The notes: generated from the letters alone by a model not told the origin. 64,000 nucleotides of DNA from Planctomycetota bacterium (GCA_036443405.1 JAZFYD010000243.1:2908-66907), one strand, 5' to 3'; shown: positions 5,949 to 61,913, counted from the first letter of the stretch. A program made the numbers and translations.

Positions 5949-5967
5949 AGGGGGCCTCACATCTTTA

Positions 5968-32710: not shown

Positions 32711-32771
32711 CGGTGCATTCCTTTCGCTGCCAAGGTCTTTAGTCCCAACTGATCTGGGTCTGGGACTACAG

Positions 32772-32816
32772 ACCCGAATCCGCCCGGAAACTTTCCGGTC
32801 CGCGGGTTCGGGCCAA
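32772..32816 (-). promoter_or_regulatory. structured element in the pilB-pilC intergenic region: 11-bp stem enclosing a perfect 15-bp palindrome CCGGAAACTTTCCGG
   Basis: cccgaatccgc-ccggaaactttccggtcc-gcgggttcggg. The palindrome lies at 32784-32798. It is about 100 nt upstream of the pilC ATG. Confidence 0.45.
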
Positions 32817-32927
32817 CATCTTTCCTGACACGACCGGGAAACGCAACACGGTTGTGAAGAGCCTGCGAATCCGTCTCCAGGACGGCCCGATTCGGCTCAG
32901 CCTAACGAATGCGCCTCGGCGGCCCTG

Positions 32928-34673: not shown

Positions 34674-34675
34674 GA

Positions 34676-44645: not shown

Positions 44646-45805
44646 CAGCTGTCGCCGAGGCGGGATAACAGGTTCTTCGCGCGGGCGTGCCCCGGCTGCG
44701 CGCCCAACGCCTCCCCAAGCAACGCCTTGGCCTCGCGGTTCAGATACCGCGCGGCACACCAGTGCGCGAGATCGACCTGCGCGTCCACGTCCCCCTTCTT
44801 CAACGCCGCATGCGATTGCGCGGCGCTGCGCTCCAACGCCACCCGGTCGAACACGCCGCGCAGCTTGGCGCGCCCGATTTCATACAAGAGACCATCGGGT
44901 GCCGTTCCTTCGACGACGATCCTGTCCCAGCGCGTCACCTTGAGCGGAAAGAACAGGCCGCTTCTCAGTTCCAAGAGCTGGGGAAACTCAGCGACGCTCG
45001 CGAACATGGCCGGCGGCAGCGCGCCGACCTCCGCGCGTTCGGTTTTCTTGGGTCTTATCGATGCCGTCTCCGCGGACCCCGTCTCGGGCGCAGACATACC
45101 GCCCCCCATGGGATCGTCCATCCCGCCCCCGCGCGACGGGTCGCCGGCCGAATCCGGAGCGTCGAGACCCGTTGCTGTGTCCTTCGCCCCCATCGCGTTC
45201 TCGGCCTCTTCGTGCGTCGACGAACTTCCGCCGTCTTCTTGAGAACCGCCAGGCCGTCCGACCAAAACGCCCACCAAGACACCAACGGTCAGAAGCAACA
45301 GCCCACCAACACCGACCGCGATCCACTTCCACTTCGCCGCATCGCCGCCCGACGGCGCGGACGGCGCGGATGCGTGCGTCACCGGGCGCGCCACGCGGGC
45401 GGGCGGGTGAGGTTCGCTCGCGGGCTTTTGTTCAACGGCGGGCGGCGGCAGGGGCGGCAGAGCCGTCGCGGGCGCCGCTGCCGCGGGAGCCCCCACGGGT
45501 GCGGGCGGCGGCGTGTGATGGAACGTAACCACCGCCTGGCCGAAGTGGACAAAGTCCCCGGCCTCGACCGTGCTCGGCATCTGCGCCGTCAGCGCCGCAC
45601 CGTTGATCCGAGTTCCGGTGGTGGAGCCGAGGTCCGTGATCTTGACGAGGTCCCCATCCACCTCGACAAGCGCATGCCGTCGCGAAACGGTGGAGTGCTC
45701 GAGCAGCAAATCACTGACGGCCGCGTCGCGCCCCACGACGGTAATCCGCCGCTCGAGCTCGAGCACGAGCCGCCCTTGAGGTCCATCCCAAACGAGAACC
45801 GCCAT
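44645..45805 (-). CDS. FHA-domain membrane protein
   Basis: The N-terminal FHA domain is MAVLVWDGPQGRLVLELERRITVVGR...VSRRHALVEVDGDLVKITDLGSTTGTRING. A Pro-rich linker, a TM helix and a C-terminal domain follow. The start could alternatively be ATG at 45835. Confidence 0.7.
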   Translation of the reverse strand: MAVLVWDGPQGRLVLELERRITVVGRDAAVSDLLLEHSTVSRRHALVEVDGDLVKITDLGSTTGTRINGAALTAQMPSTVEAGDFVHFGQAVVTFHHTPPPAPVGAPAAAAPATALPPLPPPAVEQKPASEPHPPARVARPVTHASAPSAPSGGDAAKWKWIAVGVGGLLLLTVGVLVGVLVGRPGGSQEDGGSSSTHEEAENAMGAKDTATGLDAPDSAGDPSRGGGMDDPMGGGMSAPETGSAETASIRPKKTERAEVGALPPAMFASVAEFPQLLELRSGLFFPLKVTRWDRIVVEGTAPDGLLYEIGRAKLRGVFDRVALERSAAQSHAALKKGDVDAQVDLAHWCAARYLNREAKALLGEALGAQPGHARAKNLLSRLGDS

Positions 45806-46027: not shown

Positions 46028-46441
46028 CTAACGCTTGCTGAACTGGAAGCGACGTCGCGCACCGCGCTGGCCGTACTTCTTGCGCTCTTTCATGCGGGCA
46101 TCGCGGGTCAGGAACCCGCCATCTCGCAGCGTCGGCTCGGTCTCGGCGTCGATGCGCAGTAGCGCGCGGGCGATGCCAAGGCGGACGGCACCGGACTGAC
46201 CGAGCGGGCCACCACCGTTGACGTTGACCTTGACGTCGTACTTGCTCTCGGCTTCGGTCGCGCGCAGCGGGCCGAGAACCTGGTTCTGCATGTCGACGGT
46301 CGGGAAGAACTCTTTGAACGCCTTGCCGTTGAGCGTGATCTCGCCGGTGCCGGGGAACAGACGGACCCGGGCGACCGCGGTCTTGCGGCGGCCGGTGCCC
46401 CAAACGAAGTTCGCTTTGTCGTTAGTCTTCTGCTCGCTCAT
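46028..46441 (-). CDS. rpsI: 30S ribosomal protein S9
   Basis: 137 aa ending KKYGQRGARRRFQFSKR, a diagnostic S9 C-terminus. The start overlaps the rplM stop. Confidence 0.95.
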   Translation of the reverse strand: MSEQKTNDKANFVWGTGRRKTAVARVRLFPGTGEITLNGKAFKEFFPTVDMQNQVLGPLRATEAESKYDVKVNVNGGGPLGQSGAVRLGIARALLRIDAETEPTLRDGGFLTRDARMKERKKYGQRGARRRFQFSKR

Positions 46442-46887
46442 CAGGCGTTCCTTCCGGTGCCGAGGTTGAGCGGCTCCGGCTTCTGCGCGGCGTGACGATG
46501 CTCACTGCCGGCGTAGATCTTGAGTTTCTTCAGCATGTGACGGCCCATGCGCGACTTCGGCAGCATGCGGCGAACGGCCAACCGAACGATGTCCTCCGGG
46601 CGGCTGTCGCGCATCTGCTCCAGCGTGCGGGTCTTACGGCCGCTCGGCCAACCCGTGTACCACTGGTAGATCTTCTTTTCGTCCTTCGCGCCCGTCGCCT
46701 GGACCTCCGCCGCGTTGATCACCACGACAAAATCGCCGGTGTCGATGTGGGCGGTGTAGGTCGGCCGGTGCTTGCCCATCAGGATCATGGCAATGCGCAC
46801 GGCGGCGCGGCCGAGCACCTCATTCTTGGCGTCGATCAAATACCAGTGGGGAGTAATCTCCCCCGCTTTGGCCATCGGAGTCTTCAC
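46441..46887 (-). CDS. rplM: 50S ribosomal protein L13
   Basis: (M)KTPMAKAGEITPHWYLIDAKNEVLGRAAV matches the L13 N-terminus (E. coli [20 protein letters not shown]). The start is GTG at 46887. Confidence 0.95.
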   Translation of the reverse strand: MKTPMAKAGEITPHWYLIDAKNEVLGRAAVRIAMILMGKHRPTYTAHIDTGDFVVVINAAEVQATGAKDEKKIYQWYTGWPSGRKTRTLEQMRDSRPEDIVRLAVRRMLPKSRMGRHMLKKLKIYAGSEHRHAAQKPEPLNLGTGRNA

Positions 46888-46970: not shown

Positions 46971-46999
46971 AACGTAAGCGCGATTCCGTGGCCTGTCAA
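46971..46999 (-). promoter_or_regulatory. sigma70-type promoter of the rplM-rpsI operon
   Basis: On the minus-strand sense: TTGACA (plus tgtcaa 46994-46999), a 17-nt spacer, and TACGTT (plus aacgta 46971-46976). The leader of about 80 nt contains a GGCCCCC...GGGGGCC stem. Confidence 0.6.
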
Positions 47000-48108
47000 T
47001 CTTGGAGCGCGACCGCGCTGCGCCGGCACAGCCGGATCTCCCCGGGCGCGTTCGTCGGCGGCCTGAACTCCCCCGTCGGATCCACGGGCCCTCCGGCCGG
47101 CTCGACGTGCTCCGTCACAAAGATCCGGGTCATACCCGGCTCCGCCGACCCCGCCGTACCCGGACTCTCCCACCACGCACCGCCGCGTTCCAAAAACGGA
47201 ACCGGCTGCTCGCCCGGCCCCGGCATCGGGGCCAACCCGGGCCTCAGCGTGACCGCGACCCGGTAAATCCGGCGGCGAACGTGCCCGTCCAGCACGAAGA
47301 CCTCCTCGATCCGGCCGGCGGCCACGGGGCGATCGACCCGCTCGGGCAAGACGGCGCCCAAACCGGCTCCCGCGATCCCGACGAGCGCTCCCATGCCGAG
47401 CAGCAGGCGACGGTCGACGCGGAACAGAGCTCCGCCGAGAATCAGGAGCCCAAACGCGATGCCGGATCCCAAGACGACGAGGCGGGCTTGATCCAGCGCA
47501 TCCGGAGCCACCTCCGCGGGCGGGAGATCCTTGTAGAGATCGGGCCGCGCGGACGCAGCTCGCGCCACACGCAGCGGGCGCACCGGCCCAGCGCGCGCGA
47601 GCACCTCCTTGGGATCGCCGCCGCCGCCGGCAACGTCGCCGCCACCGCGTCCCCACTTCTCGAGCGCGCGATCGCGCCGCGACTCCTGAAGCAGGTAAAC
47701 CCGGTCGAACAGATCCAAGGAGTTCCAAAGCCCTGGAACGTCGCCCTCGCGGACGTGTACGGCTTTCACGGGTTCACCGTCGGCTCCTTTGAGCCCGGCG
47801 GCCAGGTTGTCGGGACCGGCGCCGAGCAATAGCACCAGCCGCGTGTTCTCCGGCACCGCGTCGAGTTCCAACAAGACCGCGCCGGACGCATCGACGACCG
47901 CACACGGCGTCCGCGAAACGCGCACGTATGTCATCTCGCCGTCTCTCAAACGGTAGGTCCACCCGTCGATGGAGACCGTTACGTCGATGGTCGATCGCAG
48001 CGCGAGCGGAACGCCGGGGCGCGCATAGGGGCCGAGCGGCGCTTCGACGGTGATGCCGGCGTCCGCCAGCGCGACCGTCGACAGCCAGAGAACAAGGAGC
48101 GCTCTCAC
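46996..48108 (-). CDS. hypothetical secreted/membrane protein, last gene of the dcw-linked operon
   Basis: GTG at 48108 overlaps the upstream stop (GTGA) and has GGGAGG 4 nt upstream. It has a signal peptide MRALLVLWLSTVALADA and two predicted TM helices in the middle. Composition is coding-like. Confidence 0.5.
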   Translation of the reverse strand: MRALLVLWLSTVALADAGITVEAPLGPYARPGVPLALRSTIDVTVSIDGWTYRLRDGEMTYVRVSRTPCAVVDASGAVLLELDAVPENTRLVLLLGAGPDNLAAGLKGADGEPVKAVHVREGDVPGLWNSLDLFDRVYLLQESRRDRALEKWGRGGGDVAGGGGDPKEVLARAGPVRPLRVARAASARPDLYKDLPPAEVAPDALDQARLVVLGSGIAFGLLILGGALFRVDRRLLLGMGALVGIAGAGLGAVLPERVDRPVAAGRIEEVFVLDGHVRRRIYRVAVTLRPGLAPMPGPGEQPVPFLERGGAWWESPGTAGSAEPGMTRIFVTEHVEPAGGPVDPTGEFRPPTNAPGEIRLCRRSAVALQD

Positions 48109-48668
48109 TTGGCCTCCCGCGGGCGAACCAACGCAACAACGGGCCAGGCCATGAGCGCCAGGACGCCGGGCATCGACAACGGACCTCCCGACTCGATGCG
48201 CACCGCGGCACCCCACGGCGAGAGCGGTCGCCACGCCGCGGCATCGCCACCGCCGAACTCGGCGACCAGGTACGCCAGCGCAAAGGGCGCAACCAGGAGC
48301 AGGACCATCGTCGGGAGATACAGCGCGCCGACACGGCGCCCAACGAGAGCGCGACCGGCCGATCCCGCCACCGCGCACAACGCGAGCAGTCCGAACGAGC
48401 GCAAGAGCACGTCGGCGCCCCCACGACCGTACGAGGCCGCGGCGACCGCAGGTCCCGCGAGAAGCCAGGGCAGAAACCCGAGGCCCCAACCCGGCGTATC
48501 CACGAGCGCGGGCGAAATCAGGAGCGCATGCACCGCGGCGAGGCCAAGGACGAGACCGAGCGGCCCGCCGCCCCTTTTCGGCTCCACGATGTAGAGCGCC
48601 GCCACCAGCAGCAAGAGGAGAATCAGGGCCGAGGCCGCCTCTTTGGGCGGCACGGCTTTCCGGATCAT
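48105..48668 (-). CDS. hypothetical polytopic membrane protein translationally coupled to ftsQ
   Basis: ATG at 48668 overlaps the ftsQ stop (ATGA). 187 aa with 4-5 hydrophobic helices. The track ORF N-terminus out to 49526 overlaps ftsQ out of frame. Confidence 0.5.
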   Translation of the reverse strand: MIRKAVPPKEAASALILLLLLVAALYIVEPKRGGGPLGLVLGLAAVHALLISPALVDTPGWGLGFLPWLLAGPAVAAASYGRGGADVLLRSFGLLALCAVAGSAGRALVGRRVGALYLPTMVLLLVAPFALAYLVAEFGGGDAAAWRPLSPWGAAVRIESGGPLSMPGVLALMAWPVVALVRPREAK

Positions 48669-49615
48669 AGGTCCGTCGATTTTCGCAGATAGAGCGTGCC
48701 GTACCGGACGTCGATTTCGCGGCCCCGCACGCGTTCGAGATCTTCCGCCACCTCGATCAGGTACGCGATCTTCTTGGCGACGGAGTTTTCGCGCACGCCC
48801 GGCCCGGGCCGGCCCCAGCGAACCCGGATGCCGTCGCTCCCCAGGAGGACGACCCCCTGCCGCTGATCGCGCGCACCCGAAACGTCGATGCGGTACAAAC
48901 CGAGCGGCGCCAAATCCGCGAGGTGCGGTGCGATCTCCGCCAGCGTATCGAGACCGATGCGCACTGCGCCGTGCCGCCAGCGTTCGCCCGCGACCGGCGC
49001 GTCGCCGGGAACCGGTCCGATGCGAAACAGGCCGCTGCTGATTCCGGCGTAGGCCTTTGCCGGAAGCACGATCTGATCGAATGTGACCGGGTGGCTCGCG
49101 TCGGCGGTCGCCAGCACGGCATAGGGCCGGCGCAACTCGACCTCCAACGAATAACGGCGCGGCCAATGGCGTCGGACGCGATGCACGCGCTCGACACCGG
49201 GCAGCACTTCGAGGGCGCGGCGGATCTTCTGATCGAATCGCGAGTCGAAGAGGCTGATCGGCCCCAGCGCGCGCAGTTGGTCTTCGAGCGGTGCCACGAC
49301 CGCGATGTCCCCCCATGCGGGCGCAGCCAGGGAGACCTCGGTCGGGAATGCCAGGAATCGGGTGTCGTGCAGGAGGCCGCGTTGCAGAGCGCGCATTCCG
49401 AAAAACGAACCGACGACGATCAACGCGATCCAAGTCGCGCGCGAGTTGGCCAACACCGCGCCGATCTCGCGCGTCTCCGCGCCCCACGAGGCGATTCGCT
49501 CCCCCGCGGATGCGAACCTGGTCCACACCTTGTCCAGCGCCACCGCGATCGGCGAGCGACCCAACGACTTGGACCGCGAGCGCTTCTTCTTGCTCTTTTT
49601 CTTCTTGCCGCTCAT
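48665..49615 (-). CDS. ftsQ: cell division protein FtsQ/DivIB-like (POTRA)
   Basis: Lys-rich cytoplasmic N-terminus MSGKKKKSKKKRSRSK, a single TM, and a POTRA-like domain (LPGVERVHRVRRHWPRRYSLEVELRRPYAVL). ATG at 49615 overlaps the murB stop (ATGA). Confidence 0.7.
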   Translation of the reverse strand: MSGKKKKSKKKRSRSKSLGRSPIAVALDKVWTRFASAGERIASWGAETREIGAVLANSRATWIALIVVGSFFGMRALQRGLLHDTRFLAFPTEVSLAAPAWGDIAVVAPLEDQLRALGPISLFDSRFDQKIRRALEVLPGVERVHRVRRHWPRRYSLEVELRRPYAVLATADASHPVTFDQIVLPAKAYAGISSGLFRIGPVPGDAPVAGERWRHGAVRIGLDTLAEIAPHLADLAPLGLYRIDVSGARDQRQGVVLLGSDGIRVRWGRPGPGVRENSVAKKIAYLIEVAEDLERVRGREIDVRYGTLYLRKSTDL

Positions 49616-50499
49616 GTCAGCCACCGCCGCACTTCGATTTCGAGATCCACGTGATGGACCTGGGACACCTTCGTCCGCACCCGGTCGATCAGCGCCAGCA
49701 CGTCGGCTGCCGACGCCCCGCCATCGTTTTCGATGAAGTTGGCGTGTATGTCCGAGACGCGCGCCGCGCCCACCATGTTGTTTCTGCACCCCGCCGTGTC
49801 GATGAGACGCCCGGCCGAATCTCCGGCAGGGTTCCTAAACACGCAACCCGCGTTGCCGACCCACCCGGGTTGGGTTTGCCGCCGCTCCTTGACGATGGCG
49901 CGAGCAAAGCCGCGCACGACGGACGGCTCGCTCGGGTCGAGTCGCAACCAGGCGCGCAAGACGATGCGATCGCCCACCGCGCTCTTCCGATAACGGAAGA
50001 AACTCGCGGGCGGTTCGAACGACTCCAAATCGCCATCGCGCGTCAGCAGTTCGAGAAAGACCACGCGGCTGCCGATGGCGCCGTGCTTCCCTCCCGCGTT
50101 GCCGAAGATCGCGCCGCCGATGCGGCCGGGAATGCCCGCGAGGCACTCGGTGCCGCTCAGCCCCGCCGAACCGGCCGCGCGCACCGCGGCGATCAAACGC
50201 GCTCCGGCCTCTGCGACGAGCACCGGCCCGTTCGTGCCGACCGCGTTCAAACGGTTCAAGCTGATGACCGCGCCTTCAATCGGTTCGTCGCCGACGAGCA
50301 GGTTGCTGCCCCCGCCGAGGATGCGAAACGGCATTCCGATCCGGCGCAGCATCGCGACGGACTCAAGGAGTTCCTCGGTGTCCGCGGGTTCGAGATAGAC
50401 GCGTGCGTCGCCGCCGATGCGCCACGTCGTCAGCGGCGCCAACGAGTGGTCGGTCGCGACGAGGCCTCTAAAGCGCCTGTGCCAGTCGACCGGCAACAT
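49612..50499 (-). CDS. murB: UDP-N-acetylenolpyruvoylglucosamine reductase
   Basis: FAD-binding N-terminus (TTWRIGG...ILGGGSNLLV) and the MurB C-terminal domain. The ATG overlaps the murC 3' end by 32 nt. Confidence 0.9.
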   Translation of the reverse strand: MLPVDWHRRFRGLVATDHSLAPLTTWRIGGDARVYLEPADTEELLESVAMLRRIGMPFRILGGGSNLLVGDEPIEGAVISLNRLNAVGTNGPVLVAEAGARLIAAVRAAGSAGLSGTECLAGIPGRIGGAIFGNAGGKHGAIGSRVVFLELLTRDGDLESFEPPASFFRYRKSAVGDRIVLRAWLRLDPSEPSVVRGFARAIVKERRQTQPGWVGNAGCVFRNPAGDSAGRLIDTAGCRNNMVGAARVSDIHANFIENDGGASAADVLALIDRVRTKVSQVHHVDLEIEVRRWLT

Positions 50500-51841
50500 C
50501 GCCGATGTCTCCCGCCCCCATCGTCACGACCACATCGCCGGCGCGCACCTGCGCGCTCATGAAGTCCACGATCGAGGAAAAGTCCGGAATGTGAACGGCG
50601 TCGCCACCGAGCGAGCACACCTCGCGCACCAGATCGCTCGACGAAACGCGCCACGATGCCGTGTCGCCATCGCGCGCGGCGAAGATGTCCGGGATCACCA
50701 CCCGGTCGGCGCCGCGCAATACGTGTGCAAACTCGGAGAGAAAGCGCTTCGTGCGCGAATACTGGTGCGGTTGGAACACGCACCACAAACGCCGCGGCGA
50801 GTACTCCTCGCGCAGCGCCTGCAACCCGGCGGCAACCTCCGTCGGGTGGTGCGCGTAGTCATCGATCACCGCGACGCCGCGTGCACGGCCGACCACCTGG
50901 AGCCGCCGGCCCACGCCGCTGAACTCCTCGAGCGCGTCGCCGATCGCATCCATGTCGGCGCCGAGTTCGTGCGCGAGCGTCACCACGGCGCCCGCGTTGA
51001 GCAGGTTGTGCCGGCCCGGCAGGCGAAGCCGGAACTTGCGGTTCAACGCGCGAAACTCCGTGAGGCCGTCCTTGCGTCCGAGCGGCTCCAGGCGCACCTG
51101 CGCGCCGTGTGAGAAACCGTACGTGCGAACGCGCGCCCGAACTCCGCCGGCGCGGCCAAGCGTTTCGTAGAGACTGTCGTGCAACACGAGCAGGTCGCCG
51201 ACAAGCGTGACAAAACTCCGGAACGCAGCCACGATCTCGACGAGGTCGCGGTAGTAATCGAGATGATCCGCCTCGACGTTGGTGACGATCGCGGCCTCGG
51301 GCTGAAAGTGCAGGAAGCTGCGGTCGTACTCGCAAGCCTCCGCGACAAACAGGTCGCCGCGCCCGAGACCGGCGCCGCCGCCGAGCTGGGGCGCCACGCC
51401 GCCAAGAACAAAGCTCGGATCGGCGCCCGCCTCACGAAGCGCGTACGCCAACAACGCAGTCGTTGTCGTCTTGCCGTGCGTGCCGGCCACCGCGCACATG
51501 CGCCGCGTCGCGCCGAACCGCGCGAGCGCCTGGGCGTATTTGAGCACCGGCAACTCCAGGGATCGCGCCAGCCGCAGCGCGGGAGAGCGGCGCGGGAGAG
51601 CCGCCGAGTGAATCACGGCCTCGGTTCCGGTCGGAATGACGTCCGACTCGTCTCCGGTCGAGATCAGGAATCCATCGAAGCGCAGCGACGCGGTGCCCTC
51701 GCTCTCGCGCAGATCCGCGCCGGTCACGGTGTGGCCCGCGTCACGCAGCAGACGAGCGAGCGAACCCATCCCGGTTCCGCCGATGCCGAGCAGATGCAGC
51801 AAGCGCGGCTCGGAGAGATCCAGTCCTCTGGGTGCAATCAT
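50468..51841 (-). CDS. murC: UDP-N-acetylmuramate--L-alanine ligase
   Basis: MIAPRGLDLSEPRLLHLLGIGGTGMGSLA is the MurC N-terminus. The Mur ligase Walker motif is GTHGKTTTTALL. ATG at 51841 overlaps the murG stop (ATGA). Confidence 0.9.
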   Translation of the reverse strand: MIAPRGLDLSEPRLLHLLGIGGTGMGSLARLLRDAGHTVTGADLRESEGTASLRFDGFLISTGDESDVIPTGTEAVIHSAALPRRSPALRLARSLELPVLKYAQALARFGATRRMCAVAGTHGKTTTTALLAYALREAGADPSFVLGGVAPQLGGGAGLGRGDLFVAEACEYDRSFLHFQPEAAIVTNVEADHLDYYRDLVEIVAAFRSFVTLVGDLLVLHDSLYETLGRAGGVRARVRTYGFSHGAQVRLEPLGRKDGLTEFRALNRKFRLRLPGRHNLLNAGAVVTLAHELGADMDAIGDALEEFSGVGRRLQVVGRARGVAVIDDYAHHPTEVAAGLQALREEYSPRRLWCVFQPHQYSRTKRFLSEFAHVLRGADRVVIPDIFAARDGDTASWRVSSSDLVREVCSLGGDAVHIPDFSSIVDFMSAQVRAGDVVVTMGAGDIGDVAGRLAQAL

Positions 51842-52953
51842 CCGCCCAACTCCGCGACCCAGCTCCGTTCGGCCAGGGCGTGTCCCAACGTCTCCAGAAG
51901 ATGTCCCGCCATGTCCTCTGCGGCGGCCGGACGCGCAAGCGCATGCGCGCGGACCGCCATCGACTCGCGCTCGGCGAGATCGACGAGGAGCGGCGCGACG
52001 ATTCGGCGGAACGCCGGCGGCGTGAGTTCTTCCTCGCGCACCAACCGCGCCGCGTCCGCCGCCACCGCGGCCTGCGCGTTCTTGTGCTGCTGCTGATCGC
52101 GGTGATGCGGGTAGGGGACAAACACGGTCGGCTTGCCGCGAGCGAGGCACTCGGCCACCGTCGAGGCGCCCGCGCGGGCGATCACGACGTCGGCGACGGA
52201 GTACGCGCTCCCGATCTCATCGAGATAATCCAAAACGACCGCGTGTCTCGCGAGCGGCCGATACGCGGCTCGCACGCGCTCCGCGTCCGCCGATCCCGCG
52301 CAGTGCAATACCTGAAACCGAAGGTCCTCACACGGACGCATCGCTTCGATGATCCGCGTGTTCAGCCCGCGCGCGCCCTGGCTGCCGCCAAGCACCAACA
52401 GCGTCGGCAGATCGGGGCTCAAACCGAATGTGTCGTGGGATGCCTCGAGATGCGCTTCCGTGCGCAACGGGGTTCCCGTCACGCGACAAGGCGCGTGGCG
52501 CTGAAACGTGTCGAGCGGCGCGGCGTCGCCCAGGCCCACACCCGATGCCAGCCGCGCCAGCGCGCGTGTCGCTTTGCCCGCGACCGCGTTCAACTCGACG
52601 AGATAGAACGGCTTGCGCATCGTTTTCGCCGCGATGCAAACCGGCACGGCCGAGTAGCCGCCCATTCCGGCGACCGCCGCGACATCGCGCTCACGGAGCA
52701 GCTGTCGCGCTTCGACCACCGATCGCAAGAACCGCACGGGGAAGCGCAAGCGCTCGCGGTCCACGCGCGGCGCATCCATCTCGACGGTCTCGAACTCGCC
52801 GCGGATGCGGTCGGTGTCGCCGCGCCCTTTCGGCACGACGAACAGAACCTCGAACATCGGCAGCGCGCGCGCGAGCGCCAACGCCGGATAGACGTGTCCC
52901 CCGGTGCCGCCGCCGGCGAACAGGAGGACCGGTTTTTTGACGGGCGCGATCAT
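51838..52953 (-). CDS. murG: undecaprenyldiphospho-muramoylpentapeptide beta-N-acetylglucosaminyltransferase
   Basis: MIAPVKKPVLLFAGGGTGGHVYPALALA, the MurG G-loop motif. ATG at 52953 overlaps the ftsW stop (ATGA). Confidence 0.9.
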   Translation of the reverse strand: MIAPVKKPVLLFAGGGTGGHVYPALALARALPMFEVLFVVPKGRGDTDRIRGEFETVEMDAPRVDRERLRFPVRFLRSVVEARQLLRERDVAAVAGMGGYSAVPVCIAAKTMRKPFYLVELNAVAGKATRALARLASGVGLGDAAPLDTFQRHAPCRVTGTPLRTEAHLEASHDTFGLSPDLPTLLVLGGSQGARGLNTRIIEAMRPCEDLRFQVLHCAGSADAERVRAAYRPLARHAVVLDYLDEIGSAYSVADVVIARAGASTVAECLARGKPTVFVPYPHHRDQQQHKNAQAAVAADAARLVREEELTPPAFRRIVAPLLVDLAERESMAVRAHALARPAAAEDMAGHLLETLGHALAERSWVAELGG

Positions 52954-54053
52954 GCCTGTGCGAACTCCGTTCCGGCCAAACCGCCCGGTGAACTCTCCAG
53001 GTTGCGTCCCACGTTCACGATCAATCCGACGGCCAGGAGCGAGATCACCATGTTGCTGCCGCCTTGGGAGAGAAACGGCAGCGAGATGCCCTTGGTCGGC
53101 GCGGCTCCGGTCGCGACGGCGATGTTCAGGAGCGCCTGGAAGACGATCACGAACGTCGCACCCGCGGCGAGATGGAATCCGAACCGGTTCTTGCGCGCGG
53201 CCGCCAACGCGACCCGCACGCCGTGGATCAGGATCAGGAGGAACAGCGCGATGATGATGCAGACGCCGAGGAACCCGAGCTCCTCGCCGATGTTGGCCAG
53301 GATGAAATCGGTGTGTCCCGCAGGCAGGTAGTGGTGCTTCTGCCACCCGGCGCCGAGGCCGCTGCCGAACAGACCGCCGCTGCCGAGCGCGATCTCGGCT
53401 TGGAGCTGCTGATAGCTCTTCTCGCCGTGGAAGAACCGGAGGCGCTCCTGGATGTACGGGAACCGCGAGGCGACGAGAAACAGGAGCGGGGCCGCGACGA
53501 ACGAGATGCCGAGCAGGCGGCCCACGCGCACGCCGGCGATCAACATCATCGTGCCCGCGACGGTCGCGAGGAAAATCGTCGTCCCAAAATCGGGCGCGGG
53601 AAGAACAAGCAGGCAGAGCAACCAAACGGGCCAGGAGAGTTGCACCGGGTTCTCGATGCGGCCGCGCGTGAGCGAGAGCCGGTGCGCGAGGAAGATCACG
53701 ATGGCGAGTTTGGCGAGTTCCGACGGCTGGAAGCGGCCCAGAAACGGCACCGGGAACCAGCGTTTCGTATTCGCGACCGGCGTCGCGAACAAAAGGCAAC
53801 CGAGCAGCAACGCCCCTGTGAGCACAACCAGCGGGACCGCCGCCTTCTGCAGCGTCTCGGACGGAACGCGAATGACGGCCATGCAGCACAACACCGCAAA
53901 CGCGGCGCAGAGGGCCTGACGCACCAACAGGTGCTCCCCGAGGCTGTAGAGGCAGATCAACCCGAACGCAACCAGGCCCAGCGCGGCGGCGAGTACCACG
54001 TAGGCGTCGTCGCGCGCGCTGCGCGGCTGGAAAATGCGCGTCCAGTGTTTCAT
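52950..54053 (-). CDS. ftsW: SEDS-family peptidoglycan glycosyltransferase FtsW
   Basis: 367 aa, polytopic, with FtsW/RodA blocks (PSELAKLAIVIFLA, GTTIFLA). ATG at 54053 overlaps the mraY stop (ATGA). murD is therefore absent from its canonical position between mraY and ftsW. Confidence 0.85.
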   Translation of the reverse strand: MKHWTRIFQPRSARDDAYVVLAAALGLVAFGLICLYSLGEHLLVRQALCAAFAVLCCMAVIRVPSETLQKAAVPLVVLTGALLLGCLLFATPVANTKRWFPVPFLGRFQPSELAKLAIVIFLAHRLSLTRGRIENPVQLSWPVWLLCLLVLPAPDFGTTIFLATVAGTMMLIAGVRVGRLLGISFVAAPLLFLVASRFPYIQERLRFFHGEKSYQQLQAEIALGSGGLFGSGLGAGWQKHHYLPAGHTDFILANIGEELGFLGVCIIIALFLLILIHGVRVALAAARKNRFGFHLAAGATFVIVFQALLNIAVATGAAPTKGISLPFLSQGGSNMVISLLAVGLIVNVGRNLESSPGGLAGTEFAQA

Positions 54054-55339
54054 CGCAGCTTCAGGAGACTCAGGGACACCAGCGAGAGGATGACCGCGAC
54101 GATCCAGAACCGGACCGTGATCTTCGCCTCGTGGATGCGGTTGAATTGGAAGTGGTGATGCAGTGGCGCGCACTTGAACAGGCGCTTGCCGCCGGTGAAC
54201 TTGAACCAACGGCGCTGCAGGATGACGGAGACCGCCTCGGCGACGAACACGCCGCCCGCGACGAACAGCGTCAGCTCCTGGCGGGCCGCGACCGCGATGA
54301 GGCCGAGCGCGCCGCCGAGCGCGAGCGAACCGGTGTCGCCCATGAAGACGGTTGCGGGGAACCCGTTGAACCACAGGAACCCGAGTCCGGCGCCGCCGAG
54401 CGCAGCGCACACGACGGCGAGCTCCTCGATGCCGGGCACGTGGAACACGTAGAGGTGGGCGGAGATGTCCGCGCGTCCGACGATGTAGGTGATCGCGGCG
54501 AACGTGCCCGCCGCAATCACGATGCACCCGACGGCCAGGCCGTCCATCCCGTCGGTCAGGTTGACGGCGTTGGACGTGCCAACGATGACAAGCGCGCCGA
54601 ACACGAGGAAAAACGCGCCGAGGTCCAAACAGAAGTGTTTGAAGAACGGCACCTGCAAGTCGGTGCGGTGGTCGGCGGTCGGATGGGCATCCGTCGGCCC
54701 GATGCTGCTGCGGGTCGGCGGAGCCTCGCGCCGGGCATCGGGTGTCGTTTCCGGCAGATCGCTCGGCACGCCGACCAGGGCCGCGGGCATCTCCGCGACG
54801 TCATAGGGCGCAGGCCGATACGGGGACGGCTTCATCGACGGAAGCCGCATCGCGTCCTCCACGCCGCCGTGTTGCGCGGGCACGTAGAGCGCGATGAGCG
54901 CGGCCGCGGCAATCCCGAACTGCGCGAGCAGTTTCTTGCGTTCGCTGAGTCCGCCGGCCTTCGGCTGTGTGAGTTTGATCCAATCGTCCACGGCGCCGAG
55001 GCAGCCGAACGCGAGAAAACCGAGAAAGACCACGATGACGTAGATCGTGTCGAGGCGCGCGAGCAGCAACACGGAAACGGAGACCGAGAGCAGGATCAAG
55101 AGGCCGCCCATCGTGGGCACACTCTGTTTCTCCTGTCGCATTTCGATCAGCGTTTGCGAATCGTGCCCCACGCAGCCCGCGAGTTTCTTGTCGCGCAGCC
55201 ACGCCACGACCCCGGGGCCGCAGACCAAGACGATGGAGAACGAGAGGATCGCGGCAAACGCGGCGCGGAAGGTGACGTAATGAAAGAGGTTGAACGCCTG
55301 GAAGTACTCCACGAGCGGAGTGAAAAGCGAATACAACAT
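54050..55339 (-). CDS. mraY: phospho-N-acetylmuramoyl-pentapeptide transferase, with a Pro-rich ~80-aa insertion
   Basis: MLYSLFTPLVEYFQAFNLFHYVTFRAAFA...NAVNLTDGMDGLA...GDTGSLALGGALG...HHHF are MraY signatures. An extra segment YVPAQHGG...PSPYRPAPYDVAEMP...TADHRTDLQVPFF is absent from E. coli MraY. Confidence 0.9.
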   Translation of the reverse strand: MLYSLFTPLVEYFQAFNLFHYVTFRAAFAAILSFSIVLVCGPGVVAWLRDKKLAGCVGHDSQTLIEMRQEKQSVPTMGGLLILLSVSVSVLLLARLDTIYVIVVFLGFLAFGCLGAVDDWIKLTQPKAGGLSERKKLLAQFGIAAAALIALYVPAQHGGVEDAMRLPSMKPSPYRPAPYDVAEMPAALVGVPSDLPETTPDARREAPPTRSSIGPTDAHPTADHRTDLQVPFFKHFCLDLGAFFLVFGALVIVGTSNAVNLTDGMDGLAVGCIVIAAGTFAAITYIVGRADISAHLYVFHVPGIEELAVVCAALGGAGLGFLWFNGFPATVFMGDTGSLALGGALGLIAVAARQELTLFVAGGVFVAEAVSVILQRRWFKFTGGKRLFKCAPLHHHFQFNRIHEAKITVRFWIVAVILSLVSLSLLKLR

Positions 55340-55364
55340 CTTCGTTCGTCGTTCGTTTCGTTCG

Positions 55365-56786
55365 TTAGGTCTTCGCCGACTCGCGTCTCCGCGCCGCACG
55401 GAGTGCGCGGGCCCGGCGACGCTCCAGAAGTTCCTGTTTCACCGCCTCATGCACGCGCTCGAGGCGCACGCCACGCGACGCCTTGAACAACAAGACATCG
55501 CGGGCCCGGGGCTTGAACGGCGGCTGTTCCATCGCGGTCTTCACGTCCGGGGTCCAGTGCACGTCCTTCAGGCCCGCCGCGCGGGCGGCGCGGGCCGTCG
55601 CCTCACTCAGAGGGCCGATCGCCCAAAGGAGGTCGATGCGCGAGCGCCCCGCGAGGGTCCCGATGCGTGTGTGCAACTCCTCGGTGCGATCACCGAGTTC
55701 GAGCATGTCGCCGAGCACGAGCACGCGCCGGCCGCTGCCTCCGCGGTAGCTCATCTCGAGAATCGCCGACTCCATCGATCGCGGGTTCGCGTTGTACGCG
55801 TCGTTCACCAATCGGACGTCCGCGATTTCCTCAACCACCATGCGCATCGGCGCGGGCTTGTATTGTTCCAGGCGGTCGGCAATGTCCGTCGGTTCGTACC
55901 CGAGCCAGAGCGCGACACCAGCGGCTGCGAGGGCGTCGTGCACGTGGTGCACACCGAGCACGTTCATTTTCACGCGCCGTTTGTTCAGCAACTGGAACGA
56001 CACCAGGCGGCGCGACGCGCGCACCTCGCCAGCATAGACGTCGGCATCCGGCCACGTCCCGAACGACAGCACGAACCCCGGCGCTTTCGGAATCATCTTG
56101 CGCGTGATCTCGTCGTCGTAGTTCAAGACGGCGCATCCGTCGGGCCCGAGAGCCTCGACCAGCGCGAACTTCTCGCGCGCGACACCGTCCAGGTCGCCCA
56201 AGCCCGCGAGGTGGGACTCGCTGACGTTGAGCACCACCCCAATGTTGGGACGCGCAAGCTCCGCAAGGCGCGCGATCTCCCCCGACGCGCTGGTGCCCAT
56301 CTCGACAACGCACACGGAGTGGTGGCGCTTGGCCTGCAAGAGGCTGAGCGGCACCCCGAGATCGTTGTTGTAGGACGCGGGCGAAACCACGGCACGCCCG
56401 CCGAGGATCAACCGCAGCATCTCCTTCGTCGTGGTCTTGCCGTTGCTGCCGGTGACGCCGACGACGGTGATGTCGAGGGAGTCCCGATAGGCCCGGCCCA
56501 TCGCGCCCAAGGCCGCCAGTGCGTCCTTGACCTCGATGACCGCTCGGCCCATAGCGCGATGCTCGGCGGCCGTTTCCGGCCGCTCTACTAGTGCAGCCGC
56601 TGCACCGGACGCGAACGCCTCTCCGAGGAACGCGTGGCCGTCGGCCGACGCACCCCGAAGCGGCACAAAGAGTTCACCGGGCCTGATTTTCCGGCTGTCG
56701 ATCCCGACACCCGAGATAGGCAGGCCGGGACCGGCGTAACTCCCTCCCGTCCAGGCAGCGACCTCGTGGATGGATACCTGCTCCAT
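55365..56786 (-). CDS. murF: UDP-N-acetylmuramoyl-tripeptide--D-alanyl-D-alanine ligase
   Basis: The MurF N-terminus is ISGVGIDSRKIRPGELFVPLRG...DGHAF. The Mur ligase P-loop is GVTGSNGKTTTKEM. Confidence 0.85.
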   Translation of the reverse strand: MEQVSIHEVAAWTGGSYAGPGLPISGVGIDSRKIRPGELFVPLRGASADGHAFLGEAFASGAAAALVERPETAAEHRAMGRAVIEVKDALAALGAMGRAYRDSLDITVVGVTGSNGKTTTKEMLRLILGGRAVVSPASYNNDLGVPLSLLQAKRHHSVCVVEMGTSASGEIARLAELARPNIGVVLNVSESHLAGLGDLDGVAREKFALVEALGPDGCAVLNYDDEITRKMIPKAPGFVLSFGTWPDADVYAGEVRASRRLVSFQLLNKRRVKMNVLGVHHVHDALAAAGVALWLGYEPTDIADRLEQYKPAPMRMVVEEIADVRLVNDAYNANPRSMESAILEMSYRGGSGRRVLVLGDMLELGDRTEELHTRIGTLAGRSRIDLLWAIGPLSEATARAARAAGLKDVHWTPDVKTAMEQPPFKPRARDVLLFKASRGVRLERVHEAVKQELLERRRARALRAARRRESAKT

Positions 56787-56837
56787 CAGGTCGCCTCCGG
56801 TCCACTCTTACTACATGTAGTGGACCTATGTCAATAA

Positions 56838-58280
<1,443 letters not shown>

Positions 58281-58437
58281 GACCGCGGGCTCCGACAGCC
58301 CCGCCCCATCCGCCGACTCGGACAGGGTGCGTGCGTGTCGCACCCCGTCCCCACTATCTACTCGCGCCAAGGAGGCGCCCGCCAAATCCGGGTTCCGGCC
58401 CAAGGCCAGGGTCCGCACCCCAGCCCGCGCAATTGAC

Positions 58438-60237
58438 CTATTTGACCGCCGCAACACGCACCAATTCCGCATGATTTGTTACATGCCGGACCCCGGACCT
58501 GGAAAGCGCCTCCTCGTGTTTGGATTCAAGTAGCGGGCGTGCGCGACGCAGGAACCGTCCTGCGGCCCGCATGGCCACCACGCGGCCATAGGGAATGCCT
58601 CCGTCTTTGCGGGTGGGCTCATCCGCCGCGACCAGTACGAGGATTTGCGGATCCTCGACCGGCGCGAAACCCACAAAGGAGGCGACGTAACGCTTCAAGT
58701 GAAGCGGGTACTTCTTGCTGGTGCCGGTCTTCCCGCCGACGGGCCAATCCGGAATGCGCGCGAGGGTGTCGGTGCCCTCCGCGACGACCCGGCCCATCGC
58801 GCGCCGAACGAAGTCGCGTTCGACGCGGGAGAGGTCGAGCGGGCGCCCCGGTCCGTGATCCGTGCTGCAGTCGGCATCGCGAATCAGGCGCGGCTTGCGC
58901 AGCACGCCGTCGGTGATCACGGCCGCATAGGCCGAAAGCAGTTGCACGGGGGTGACGGCGACGCCGTACCCGATGCCGGCGGACACGTCCTCGTAGTTGG
59001 TTTTCCAACGCTCGAGTTTCAACACGACGCCGGCGCTTTCGCCCGAAAGCGGGAGGCCGATGCGCGAGCCGAAACCATAGGCACGCAACCAGCGGTGCAA
59101 ACGCGCGCTGCCCATCGCCTGGGCGACCTGCCCCATGCCGATGTTGCTCGACTTGACGAGGAGGTCGGCGAGTTCCAGCACACCGTTGGGGTGCGTGTCC
59201 TGCAGCAGCCGCCGGCCGAACCGATGCCGCCCCGACGTGCCGCAGTCGATCTGCTGGCCCGGGCGCACGACGCCTTCGGACAACGCGGCGGCGAGAATGA
59301 GCGGCTTGATCGTCGAGCCAGGCTCGTAGCACCACTCGATCGCCTGCACCTTCAAGCTCTCCCGGTCGACCCTGGGCCAATCCGCGAGCTTGAACGTTGG
59401 GCGGCTCGCGATCGCGAGAATCTCGCCGGTGCGCGGATCCATCGCGACCGCGCAGGAGCGCTTGGGTGAGTGGCGCTCGTGCATCTCGTCGAGCGCTTCC
59501 TCGGCGATCTGCTGCAGCGTGACATCGATCGTCGTGTGCAGATCGAGTCCGCCGCGCGCCGGGCGGCAACGCTCCGGGTAGAGCAGGTGCTCCTCGCGCT
59601 TCACGCGGCCGTCGGAACGACGCAGCAGCATGAGCGCGTCCCGGCTGCCGTCCAAACCGCGAAGCCGGGAATCGAAATGCGCTTCGAGACCGCCAAGCCC
59701 CGCGCGCTGTTTCGGATCCCCCGCGCCGCCGAACAGGCCGAGCAATTGGATCGCTGCGTTCTGGTGCGGGTAGACGCGCCGCGCCTCCTCGCGCAGGTCG
59801 AGACCCGCAAGGCGCGCGGCCGCCAGCCGCTCCGCGACGTCGCGATCCAATCCCCGGTGCAGTACCGCGTAACGGGACCCCGCAGCCTTCCGGGATCGAA
59901 TCCGCTTCGCAAATCCCGGCGCCGCGTCGACGTCACCTATCACGAGCGCCAACCGCGTCGCAAACAGATCGGCGTCCTCGACACGCTGCGGGTCCACCGC
60001 GACGGTGATGCCGTAATACGACCCCGCGAGGATGCGACCGTTCCGGTCGAAGACCCGTCCGCGCGTCGCATCGAGTTCCACGAGATCGAAATGCTGGTCG
60101 TGCGCCCGCAGCGCGATGTTCTCGGCGCCGAACACCTGCATGTAGCCGGTGCGGACCAGCAGAACCAGGAGCCCGACGACCAAGACGGCGAACGCCACCT
60201 GCAGTCGGTGCTCCATTCCTTTGGTGTGCCGGCTCAT
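58438..60237 (-). CDS. ftsI: peptidoglycan D,D-transpeptidase FtsI (class B PBP)
   Basis: An N-terminal TM and PBP dimerization domain are followed by a transpeptidase with the SxxK, SxN and KTG-type motif KTGT (GGKTGTSKK). ATG at 60237 overlaps the ftsL stop (ATGA). Confidence 0.85.
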   Translation of the reverse strand: MSRHTKGMEHRLQVAFAVLVVGLLVLLVRTGYMQVFGAENIALRAHDQHFDLVELDATRGRVFDRNGRILAGSYYGITVAVDPQRVEDADLFATRLALVIGDVDAAPGFAKRIRSRKAAGSRYAVLHRGLDRDVAERLAAARLAGLDLREEARRVYPHQNAAIQLLGLFGGAGDPKQRAGLGGLEAHFDSRLRGLDGSRDALMLLRRSDGRVKREEHLLYPERCRPARGGLDLHTTIDVTLQQIAEEALDEMHERHSPKRSCAVAMDPRTGEILAIASRPTFKLADWPRVDRESLKVQAIEWCYEPGSTIKPLILAAALSEGVVRPGQQIDCGTSGRHRFGRRLLQDTHPNGVLELADLLVKSSNIGMGQVAQAMGSARLHRWLRAYGFGSRIGLPLSGESAGVVLKLERWKTNYEDVSAGIGYGVAVTPVQLLSAYAAVITDGVLRKPRLIRDADCSTDHGPGRPLDLSRVERDFVRRAMGRVVAEGTDTLARIPDWPVGGKTGTSKKYPLHLKRYVASFVGFAPVEDPQILVLVAADEPTRKDGGIPYGRVVAMRAAGRFLRRARPLLESKHEEALSRSGVRHVTNHAELVRVAAVK

Positions 60238-60482
60238 TTCGGGGCCTCCCCATCGGTGTCCAACAACCCGACGGTCCGGCCACGCTCCAAGAGCAACACG
60301 GGCGAGCTCTGCTCCTGCAGGCTCAGTTCCAGGTTGGCGTTGCGTCGCTCGCGCTCGAGGAGCTCACGTTCCAGGCGGCCGATATCGTGCGCGAGTTCGA
60401 CGACGCGGGCCCTCGTCCGGACCGTGTGAAGCGCGCCGAGCAGCAACAGGAACGCGGTGACCCACAAGGCGCTCTTACGCAT
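60234..60482 (-). CDS. ftsL: FtsL-like cell division protein (TM plus coiled coil)
   Basis: 82 aa, MRKSALWVTAFLLLLGALHTV followed by a coiled-coil segment. It is positioned between rsmH and ftsI. The start overlaps the rsmH 3' end by 8 nt. Confidence 0.55.
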   Translation of the reverse strand: MRKSALWVTAFLLLLGALHTVRTRARVVELAHDIGRLERELLERERRNANLELSLQEQSSPVLLLERGRTVGLLDTDGEAPK

Positions 60483-61425
60483 CCTGGGCCTCCTCAACGT
60501 CCTTCCGCTTACACACACGAAGCTTGGCCGAACGTGCTCTCGGATTGCCGCGCGCTTCTTCCCATGCCGCGCGCACGCATTTCTTCGTGAGCACCTCGAG
60601 AGCTTCGTGATCCTTGAAGTAGTGCTTCACGATCCGGTCTTCGCCGGAGTGAAACGAAATCACGGCGACCAGGCCACCTGAGCGCACGCGCCTGGCCGCG
60701 GCATCCAGCCCGCGGCGCAATTCTCCCAACTCGTCGTTGACAGCCATGCGCAGGGCCTGAAACGTGCGGGTGGCGTTGTCGATCTTGCTGCGGCCCCTCA
60801 CGGCCCGACGCACAATGCTCGCCAACCGCCCGGTCGTCGTAATCGGTTCTTCGCGCTGCTCCGCCGCGATCGCCGCCGCGACGCGGCGCGAGGAACGCTC
60901 GCCGCCGAGTTCGAAGATCACGTTCCCAAGGTCCTTTTCATCCAAGCGCGCGATCAACTCCGCGGCGGACTCGCCTTGGGACTGATCCATGCGCATGTCG
61001 AGCGGACCGTCGTGCCGGAAACTGAATCCGCGCTCGCCGCGATCCAACTGCGGACTCGAAACACCAAGATCGAACAGGATCGCGTCGGGGGTCGCGTCTT
61101 CGGCATCGAGGACCGCGTCGATCTTCGAGAAACGCGCGTGGTGCAACGACACGCGGGAGCCGTACTCCGCCAGGTTGCGTTCGGCGCTCTCAAGACTGTC
61201 GCGATCCCGGTCGATGCCAATCACCCGCGCGTCCTCCGTTCGCTCCAACGCCGTCAGTCGTTGGGCCGACTCTTCCGAACCTGATTCCGAACCCGTACCG
61301 CCTTGGCTCTTCAGGAACGCGCCCGCATGCCCTCCGGCGCCGACCGTGCAGTCGACCAGCAGTGAAATGCCCGGCACGGCAAGGAACCCCAGCACCTCCG
61401 CAAGAAGGACCGGTTTGTGTTCCAA
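60475..61425 (-). CDS. rsmH: 16S rRNA (cytosine1402-N4)-methyltransferase RsmH (MraW)
   Basis: (M)EHKPVLLAEVL...LVDCTVGAGGHA...FDLGVSSPQLD...ISFHSGEDRIV are conserved RsmH blocks. The start is TTG. Confidence 0.9.
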   Translation of the reverse strand: MEHKPVLLAEVLGFLAVPGISLLVDCTVGAGGHAGAFLKSQGGTGSESGSEESAQRLTALERTEDARVIGIDRDRDSLESAERNLAEYGSRVSLHHARFSKIDAVLDAEDATPDAILFDLGVSSPQLDRGERGFSFRHDGPLDMRMDQSQGESAAELIARLDEKDLGNVIFELGGERSSRRVAAAIAAEQREEPITTTGRLASIVRRAVRGRSKIDNATRTFQALRMAVNDELGELRRGLDAAARRVRSGGLVAVISFHSGEDRIVKHYFKDHEALEVLTKKCVRAAWEEARGNPRARSAKLRVCKRKDVEEAQDA

Positions 61426-61429
61426 ACCG

Positions 61430-61825
61430 CTACTCGACGTCGAGCTCGCCGACCTGCTCGTTCCACGCCGCGGGCACCCACGCCTCCATGGAGAGGCCAG
61501 TGCCGACGATCAGGATTTCACGCTCCAGAAAGCGCTCAGCGAGCTTAGGCGGGAGAACGATGCGCCCCGTTCCGTCAAAAGCCTTAAAGATCGCTCGCGA
61601 GTAGAAGCTCCGGTTGAATTCCAGGTTTCCGAAGGGGTCCGAAGCCTTGCCGCTCGCGTACTGGAGCAGGAAGGACTTCGGCCAGAGGAAGAGGCACTTT
61701 TTCCCCGGGATGAGGTAAATCCCCGCACGGTCGTTCGCATCCATGAGGTCCCGCAGTTCAGAGGGGACAAGGACGCGATTCTTACCGTCGAGATTTCGAT
61801 GAAACGTACCCGTGAAAATTGCCAC
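61430..61825 (-). CDS. mraZ: transcriptional regulator MraZ
   Basis: 131 aa with two MraZ repeats (FHRNLDGKNRVLVP... and ...GTGRIVLPPKL). The start is GTG. It is the first gene of the dcw cluster. Confidence 0.9.
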   Translation of the reverse strand: MAIFTGTFHRNLDGKNRVLVPSELRDLMDANDRAGIYLIPGKKCLFLWPKSFLLQYASGKASDPFGNLEFNRSFYSRAIFKAFDGTGRIVLPPKLAERFLEREILIVGTGLSMEAWVPAAWNEQVGELDVE

Positions 61826-61885
61826 TGCCGTCGAAGCCTAGCACACACCCGAACACTTCGTCCCACAAGTTGACACATACTAACA

Positions 61886-61913
61886 CCTTGACCCATCGCT
61901 TCAAGAGGCATCT
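61886..61913 (-). promoter_or_regulatory. candidate dcw (mraZ) promoter
   Basis: On the minus-strand sense: TTGAAG, a 16-nt spacer, and TAGTAT, about 55 nt upstream of the mraZ GTG. TGGGN-like motifs (tgggt, tggga) lie nearby. Confidence 0.4.

Follow-up and report, generated by a model that had tools for sequence, protein, structure and literature searches.

A conserved gene pair of transporter-like ancestry at the distal end of an ftsZ-less dcw operon in an uncultured Planctomycetota lineage

What stands at the end of a division and cell wall (dcw) operon when ftsA and ftsZ are missing from it? The question is raised by a 64,000-nucleotide stretch of DNA from Planctomycetota bacterium (GCA_036443405.1 JAZFYD010000243.1:2908-66907, ~65–67% GC; hereafter the window), the minus strand of which carries a dcw cluster at 46996-61825. 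How planctomycetes manage division without FtsZ is, to our knowledge, still unsettled, and for free-living members of the phylum no divisome protein specific to a lineage is known to have been established. In the window, an ftsQ-like gene is followed by two genes, which we call X1 and X2, encoding a 187-aa membrane protein and a 370-aa exported protein. A first-pass annotation, made from the sequence alone, placed them in the slot of ftsA and ftsZ and proposed them as candidate lineage-specific parts of the divisome. Our analysis shows X1 and X2 to be a real, narrowly distributed and uncharacterised pair whose ancestry is recognisably transporter-like and whose putative link to division is consistent only in part. 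This pair is what may be new at the locus, as the lack of ftsA and ftsZ is already known.

Two conserved genes downstream of ftsQ

Pfam and NCBIfam assignments give the order mraZ-rsmH-ftsL-ftsI-murE-murF-mraY-ftsW-murG-murC-murB-ftsQ(like)-X1-X2, followed by rplM-rpsI and a gene for a membrane FHA protein. This agrees with the order proposed at first pass, although the ftsQ call itself is weak at the sequence level. The 12 dcw genes keep their canonical relative order, the reference being that of E. coli (mraZ-rsmH-ftsL-ftsI-murE-murF-mraY-murD-ftsW-murG-murC-(murB)-ddl-ftsQ-ftsA-ftsZ). The junctions read as previously described: ATGA at mraY/ftsW and at ftsQ/X1, and GTGA at X1/X2 with a GGGAGG Shine-Dalgarno sequence four bases upstream. 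From mraY through X2, eight genes form one translationally chained unit in which each junction is an overlap of stop and start codons, so that the synthesis of X1 and X2 is tied to that of FtsQ and the lipid II/peptidoglycan enzymes.

High GC content yields many long open reading frames (ORFs) on both strands, which raises the possibility that X1 and X2 are spurious. We can practically dismiss it: the GC pattern over codon positions is the same in both genes as in their neighbours, orthologues with invariant motifs occur across more than 14 loci, the structural model of X1 reaches a predicted local distance difference test score (pLDDT) of 91, and gene calls on identical public contigs give the same 187-aa and 370-aa products. 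Conserved orthologues, overlapping codons and public gene calls thus all support the view that these are real and co-translated genes.

To establish the distribution of the pair we collected the relatives of each protein. A profile search gives 55 relatives of X1, all of 132–190 aa. For X2, HMMER run exhaustively against 1.84 billion cluster representatives gives 50 relatives, 35 of them with E < 1e-30, while a word-indexed search returned 10. All relatives come from metagenomes or metagenome-assembled genomes (MAGs), and every one with a named source is labelled Planctomycetota or Planctomycetes. Proteins identical to X1 and X2 have been deposited from a 'Planctomycetota bacterium' MAG under the name hypothetical protein, and the related loci stem from MAGs of the same label, so that the NCBI labels agree with the source suspected from the sequence. 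Both families are restricted to a narrow uncultured lineage and are therefore not general parts of the planctomycete divisome.

Synteny was read at 14 informative, non-redundant loci; pattern-dependent scans of metagenomes and genomes for extra loci found six and four, respectively. The order that recurs in the relatives is murE-murF-mraY-ftsW-murG-murC-murB-ftsQ-like-X1-X2-rplM-rpsI-FHA. Identity to the relatives is 53–72% for the enzymes, 42–51% for FtsQ (full-length matches), ~45–50% for X1 and 28–40% for X2. Both downstream ORFs are present and conserved in the relatives, and the start codon of X2 overlaps the stop codon of X1 (NTGA) in all nine loci examined for it. X1 and X2 are an obligate pair.

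The 316-aa protein encoded upstream of X1 has one transmembrane (TM) helix, a POTRA-like motif, a putative beta domain and a Lys-rich N-terminal tail. FtsQ_DivIB_C matches are found in three of four orthologues (E = 7e-4 to 4e-3), all under the 21-bit cutoff; hhalign aligns the motif 'VRRHWPRRY..V.L.RP.AV' with the POTRA region of the E. coli protein (E = 0.06), and tblastn of E. coli FtsQ against the orthologue in locus L010 gives E = 1e-4. A profile search of the PDB with the FtsQ-like protein gave no match. The earlier ftsQ call rests on weak sequence evidence, and we accept it with moderate confidence, reading the protein as a divergent FtsQ. Its N-terminal tail is rich in Lys, Arg and Ser (MSGKKKKSKKKRSRSKS..., gene start at 49565-49615, minus strand) and is lacking in the orthologues, which have 265–278 aa; it may be either a lineage-specific cytoplasmic extension or the product of a start codon called too far upstream.

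The cluster was also said to lack murD, ddl, ftsA and ftsZ, and this is confirmed by ligase assignment and by tblastn. With E. coli MurD, DdlB, FtsA and FtsZ as queries, the search of the 64-kb window and of related loci totalling ~208 kb gave MurC/E/F paralogues as its only matches, and none of the four genes. The three Mur ligases of the cluster score above the curated NCBIfam cutoffs for MurE, MurF and MurC and far under the cutoff for MurD. Every related locus likewise lacks murD, ddl, ftsA and ftsZ, and mraY and ftsW are directly adjacent in all relatives.

Two ways in which a missing gene might have been overlooked are ruled out. A hidden, fused or mis-called murD is incompatible with three ligases of standard length assigned as MurE, MurF and MurC and with the 4-bp overlap of mraY and ftsW; an insertion in MraY is of low complexity and is not a ligase domain; and MurC, with 457 aa and Mur ligase domains only, is not a Chlamydia-type MurC-Ddl fusion.

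A cluster without ftsZ, murD and ddl is ordinary for the phylum. For Planctomycetota, earlier work has documented both the loss of ftsZ and ftsA and the breaking up of the dcw cluster (PMC12673574, PMC12283558, PMC8871954), the loss of FtsZ being phylum-wide (PMC12673574), and the locus tags of Planctopirus limnophila show its mur genes scattered across several loci. The FtsZ-less cluster singled out in the first-pass annotation is thus confirmed for this locus, but as a feature of Planctomycetota it is textbook knowledge. On the basis of the literature on the phylum, murD and ddl, gone from the cluster, are presumably located elsewhere in the genome. The absence of ftsZ from the whole source genome is likewise taken from that literature (PMC12673574), our own reading covering the 64 kb and up to ~20 kb of flanking sequence in the relatives.

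The cluster shares with other Planctomycetota dcw clusters the phylum label, the lack of ftsA and ftsZ and a retained set of peptidoglycan genes, a set that is also kept in Phycisphaerae, Brocadiia and Planctomycetales (PMC12673574, PMC12283558, PMC8871954). Whereas those other clusters are FtsZ-, FtsA- and FtsB-less and eroded or fragmented, here 12 genes stand in canonical order in one tightly overlapped operon, from which murD and ddl are cleanly excised and to the end of which two lineage-specific genes are added. The history of the dcw cluster has been described as one of loss and delocalisation, with 'likely no gene gain' (PMC8871954). With X1 and X2, a cluster whose evolution is generally described as loss only would offer an example of gene gain.

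Predicted structures of X1 and X2

At the level of sequence families X1 is silent: it has no Pfam or NCBIfam match, a profile search of the PDB was empty, none of 54 family members matches an ABC2 family at E <= 1, and hhalign of the family against E. coli CcmB and YadH gives a probability < 1%. The AlphaFold2 model of X1, built from 54 family sequences, has a pLDDT of 91 and a predicted template modelling score of 0.87. It shows six TM helices, TM5 and TM6 being separated by a short helix (151-159), as in the membrane domains of type-V (ABC-2) exporters, on which it superposes, with identities to ABCG2, PmtD, NosY, CcmB, KpsM and Wzm of only 5–17%. The statement that neither protein has a recognisable domain therefore holds for X1 and X2 in Pfam and NCBIfam, but X1 does have a recognisable ABC-2 fold.

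X1 departs from these exporters at its cytoplasmic side. With 187 aa, against 220–270 aa for type-V membrane domains, it lacks their N-terminal amphipathic helix. In the model only 7 residues precede TM1, and the cytoplasmic loops have 5–6 residues, the TM2-TM3 loop at the site of the coupling helix having 6; the interface and coupling helices on which the ATPase docks in this class are therefore missing. In addition, neither an ABC ATPase motif nor a Pfam ABC_tran match was found in the 64-kb window, and the gene calls of the related loci contain no ABC ATPase. Because of the short loops, the missing amphipathic helix and the lack of an ATPase gene nearby, we infer that X1 is an ABC-2-fold membrane protein that is no longer an ATP-driven pump and would serve as a passive membrane platform.

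These observations bear on another explanation, in which X1 serves as permease in a true ABC-2 transporter, the ATPase of which is encoded elsewhere, X2 is a GldG-like accessory and the pair exports an envelope precursor for wall synthesis. The fold of X1 is that of such permeases. The explanation is nevertheless unlikely given the small size of X1, the 6-residue loop in place of a coupling helix, the absent N-terminal interface helix, an ABC2_membrane signal in none of the 54 members, and the want of an ATPase gene in the window and related loci.

The orientation of X1 in the membrane is weakly favoured by charge to be N-terminus-in, with 7 Lys/Arg residues in cytoplasmic loops against 4 in periplasmic ones. 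In this topology the residues invariant in the family, Y133 and E137-F138-G139 at the end of TM5 and S150, P151 and A154 in the short helix, are predicted to face the periplasm.

X2 has no Pfam, NCBIfam or PDB-profile match above threshold, and fold searches with its whole model were uninformative. The protein starts with a typical signal peptide (…STVALA/DAG). In the AlphaFold2 model, built from 10 sequences with a pLDDT of 63 overall, an N-terminal beta region of low confidence is followed by a beta-alpha-beta domain at about aa 86-180 (pLDDT 70–86). A membrane hairpin is then formed by two long helices (202-229 and 233-258) with an Arg-rich turn between them, and behind it lies a C-terminal beta domain (262-337). 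As the signal peptide stands ahead of the hairpin, the soluble parts on either side of it are both predicted to lie in the periplasm. Conserved motifs are APLGPYARPG right after the signal peptide, W..LDLFD, W...GG, RPD.Y, GRIE, PWW and G.TRIF; the C-terminal QD is invariant and is LQD in most members.

The alpha/beta domain of X2 gives a faint family signal. DUF4350 matches occur in 8 of 39 family members (best E = 0.003), all under the Pfam cutoff of 30.4 bits; the two members inspected score 14.6–17.7 bits. ABC_transp_aux gives a sub-threshold match in 1 of the 39. DUF4350 has been found GldG-like by HHpred (PMC5898192). These matches weakly suggest that the alpha/beta domain of X2 is DUF4350/GldG-like. 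X2 resembles the GldG, ABC_transp_aux and DUF4350 accessories in being exported, membrane-anchored and adjoined to an ABC-2-fold protein, besides its weak but recurrent DUF4350 matches. It differs from them in its anchor, which is a central TM hairpin between two periplasmic parts, whereas the GldG type is held by terminal helices; moreover, GldA-GldF-GldG systems have a GldA-type ATPase, and none is present at the X1/X2 locus.

Two further observations concern X2 and its relatives. A remote match, the 836-aa protein P0113 (E = 6e-4), which has no PDB relative, appears to be laid out like X2, with a signal peptide and beta region ahead of the alpha/beta domain (D..vvL...W...GG), then the TM hairpin and a C-terminal part, which hints at a wider uncharacterised superfamily. 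DUF4350 proteins have also been reported in operons with MoxR and vWA proteins (PMC5898192; archaeal DUF4350-MoxR-vWA systems). A solitary gene for a MoxR-type AAA_3 ATPase lies ~3 kb from X2 in a separate convergent unit; besides the window, all five relatives with loci of sufficient reach keep it there. In the window it has no adjacent gene for a vWA or DUF58 partner.

The predicted structures bear on the slot of ftsA and ftsZ. That X1 and X2 are functional replacements of the two, as a membrane anchor and a division-site organiser, is suggested by their position right after ftsQ, by co-translation and by the lack of FtsZ in the phylum (PMC12673574). FtsA (actin-like) and FtsZ (tubulin-like) are cytoplasmic proteins, and all that X1 and X2 have in common with them is the position after ftsQ. 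X1 is a six-helix protein embedded almost entirely in the membrane, with cytoplasmic loops of at most 7 residues, and X2 is exported with its soluble parts facing the periplasm; neither has a sizeable cytoplasmic part, and they therefore cannot do the job of FtsA or FtsZ. Pfam, NCBIfam and fold searches show no likeness of either protein to actin-like or tubulin-like folds, and the pair occurs in one narrow lineage, whereas the loss of FtsZ is phylum-wide. Replacement is thus very improbable, and the slot that the first-pass annotation assigned to the pair is a matter of position only.

A possible role at the periplasmic face

Based on these results, we propose the following model. The operon is the dcw operon of an uncultured Planctomycetota lineage, extended at its distal end by two genes peculiar to this lineage. 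X1 and X2 may form a 1:1 membrane complex, laid out like the pairs of permease and accessory GldF-GldG or NosY-NosD, in which X1 would be the passive six-helix platform in the inner membrane and X2 the exported partner, held by its hairpin and with its soluble parts in the periplasm. At the periplasmic face the complex would be a scaffold or regulator that works with FtsQ-FtsL-FtsW-FtsI. Because X1 and X2 are co-translated with FtsQ and with the lipid II/peptidoglycan enzymes, we put this role forward tentatively as our best single hypothesis.

Orthologues of the pair do not always follow ftsQ: it lies directly upstream of X1 in 11 of the 14 loci, genes are inserted between them in two and ftsQ is missing in one. 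These exceptions weaken the link to ftsQ. In locus L009, a 324-aa ORF with weak HEAT-repeat matches stands between ftsQ and X1 (L009 8888-9862). In L012, the two are separated by 3.3 kb encoding an ECF sigma factor and a CarboxypepD_reg-repeat protein (L012 6310-9366). Finally, L014 (CAZMXP010000023.1, 1-9995) keeps X1-X2-rplM-rpsI-FHA with no dcw genes in the 9.5 kb upstream, where the genes lie on the opposite strand and include one for a DnaB-like helicase. What ties the pair to division is gene order only, and at least one genome departs from it. The link of X1 and X2 to ftsQ is thus strong, not absolute, and their sole invariant neighbour is rplM. As candidate divisome parts, then, they are lineage-specific as had been claimed and usually follow ftsQ, but the linkage is not obligatory and the pair is not general to planctomycetes.

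The same exceptions lend support to a different explanation, which we regard as nearly equal in probability to our own. X1-X2 could be a passenger envelope module unrelated to division that is kept between the dcw genes and rplM by inherited gene order: either a degenerate transporter-like pair handling lipid, polysaccharide or lipoprotein, or the remnant of a GldF/GldG-type system with its ATPase elsewhere. In favour of a passenger, the only invariant neighbours are X1-X2-rplM-rpsI, the block in L014 has no dcw genes upstream, L009 and L012 carry insertions, and the likeness in fold and domains is to transporter accessories, not to known parts of the divisome. In other bacteria, too, genes without a part in division stand at the distal ends of dcw operons, as lpxC does in E. 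coli. A passenger fits less well with the overlap of the ftsQ stop and X1 start, which is kept in most loci despite identities of only 45–50% for X1 and 34–40% for X2, and with an X1 that is free of cytoplasmic ATPase-coupling elements in a window of 64 kb with no ABC ATPase.

Returning to the proposed role at the periplasmic face, a more specific version can be formulated, which we consider speculative and rather improbable in its full detail. X1-X2 might be an ATPase-less descendant of an ABC-2 permease/GldG-type pair, recruited into a divisome without FtsZ, FtsA and FtsB, whose periplasmic domains, including the C-terminal LQD strand of X2, bind FtsQ/FtsL and regulate FtsW-FtsI. If so, the recruited pair would provide from the periplasm what normally comes from FtsA/FtsZ by way of FtsB/FtsN or FtsEX, namely positioning or activation. 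FtsEX provides a conceptual precedent, being a transporter-derived membrane complex that acts in division by transmembrane signalling and not by transport. FtsX, however, combines four TM helices with a large periplasmic domain and requires the ATPase FtsE; X1 and X2 share neither the fold class nor the ATPase.

The locus offers a concrete and conserved candidate pair, co-translated with FtsQ, in a lineage whose peptidoglycan/division operon is largely intact. The candidates are predicted to be periplasm-facing membrane proteins of transporter ancestry, not cytoskeletal substitutes, and X1 would exemplify an ABC-2-fold membrane domain apparently without its former ATPase. Their value is limited in that the lineage is narrow and uncultured, and the main feature of the cluster, the lack of ftsA and ftsZ, was known before.

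The operon and its surroundings

The features of the operon and of its neighbourhood are collected in Table 1. The assignment of the ftsL-like gene follows from position and architecture, its product matching NCBIfam FtsL_Actino at E = 0.004, under the cutoff.

Table 1 Features of the dcw operon and neighbouring genes in the window.
Feature	Coordinates	Strand	Evidence
GTGK boxes (five)	61843..61886	-	
mraZ, start codon GTG	61430..61825	-	Pfam MraZ, E = 2.4e-16
rsmH (mraW)	60475..61425	-	Pfam Methyltransf_5, E = 2.9e-89
ftsL-like, 82 aa, one TM helix and coiled coil	60234..60482	-	Position and architecture
ftsI (class B penicillin-binding protein)	58438..60237	-	Pfam PBP_dimer and Transpeptidase
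murE	56838..58280	-	NCBIfam TIGR01085, 447 bits (cutoff 257)
murF	55365..56786	-	NCBIfam TIGR01143, 379 bits (cutoff 289)
mraY, 429 aa	54050..55339	-	NCBIfam TIGR00445, 305 bits, two stretches
ftsW (SEDS family), adjoining mraY without murD between	52950..54053	-	Pfam FTSW_RODA_SPOVE, E = 1.3e-69
murG	51838..52953	-	Pfam Glyco_transf_28 and Glyco_tran_28_C
murC, 457 aa, without Ddl fusion	50468..51841	-	NCBIfam TIGR01082, 423 bits (cutoff 335)
murB	49612..50499	-	Pfam FAD_binding_4 and MurB_C
Divergent ftsQ-like gene, 316 aa	48665..49615	-	Weak FtsQ matches
X1, 187 aa, six TM helices, type-V (ABC-2) ABC-exporter membrane-domain fold	48105..48668	-	
X2, 370 aa, signal peptide, soluble domains and TM hairpin	46996..48108	-	AlphaFold2, HMMER
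rplM-rpsI, immediately downstream of X2	46028..46887	-	Pfam Ribosomal_L13, Ribosomal_S9; synteny
Membrane-anchored FHA protein	44645..45805	-	FHA/Yop-YscD_cpl
MoxR-type AAA_3 ATPase	42846..43781	+	
Three T2SSE/PilB-type ATPases and T2SSF platform	31577..37419	-	
PrkA - DUF444 - SpoVR	1291..6005	-	

Two of the enzyme genes show peculiarities of their own. MraY has 429 aa against 360 aa in E. coli, owing to a Pro/Ala-rich, apparently disordered insertion of ~70–90 aa between conserved blocks (about 54635-54892, minus strand); its relatives are likewise long (404–429 aa). Between the ftsI stop and the called murE start there is a gap of 157 nt (58281-58437, minus strand), whereas the two genes overlap by 4 bp in the relatives. 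Upstream, the murE ORF stays open as far as an ATG at 58472, and its true start may be further upstream.

At the proximal border, five GTGK boxes (GTGT, GTGT, GTGG, GTGT, GTGT) with an exact spacing of 10 bp lie 18 bp upstream of the mraZ start. The array is unique in the 64-kb window and was reached in none of 100 shuffles. The operator function of such boxes is known from the biology of MraZ in E. coli, and by analogy the array is likely the MraZ operator in the dcw promoter region.

At the distal border, the operon had been taken to end at an rplM promoter. This is not borne out: a consensus scan of the gap between X2 and rplM gave no promoter-like or terminator-like site, and in the public gene calls of the relatives the gap is ~25–52 bp. 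Since the gap is short in the relatives and has no such site here, rplM-rpsI may be read through from the dcw operon. Downstream of rplM-rpsI, in the window as in every related locus that is long enough, stands the gene for a membrane-anchored FHA protein, in which a Pro/Ala linker connects the FHA/Yop-YscD_cpl domain to a TM helix with a C-terminal part behind it; a gene for uroporphyrinogen-III synthase (HEM4) lies beyond. In other phyla, FHA proteins are regulators of cell-wall synthesis.

Neither an Rfam search nor a tRNA scan of the window gave a match. Farther from the operon, PrkA, DUF444 and SpoVR genes form a trio of the yeaG-yeaH-ycgB type of stress module. Three consecutive T2SSE/PilB-type ATPase genes, two of them with MshEN, are accompanied by a T2SSF platform gene, and T2SSE genes recur near the locus in the relatives.

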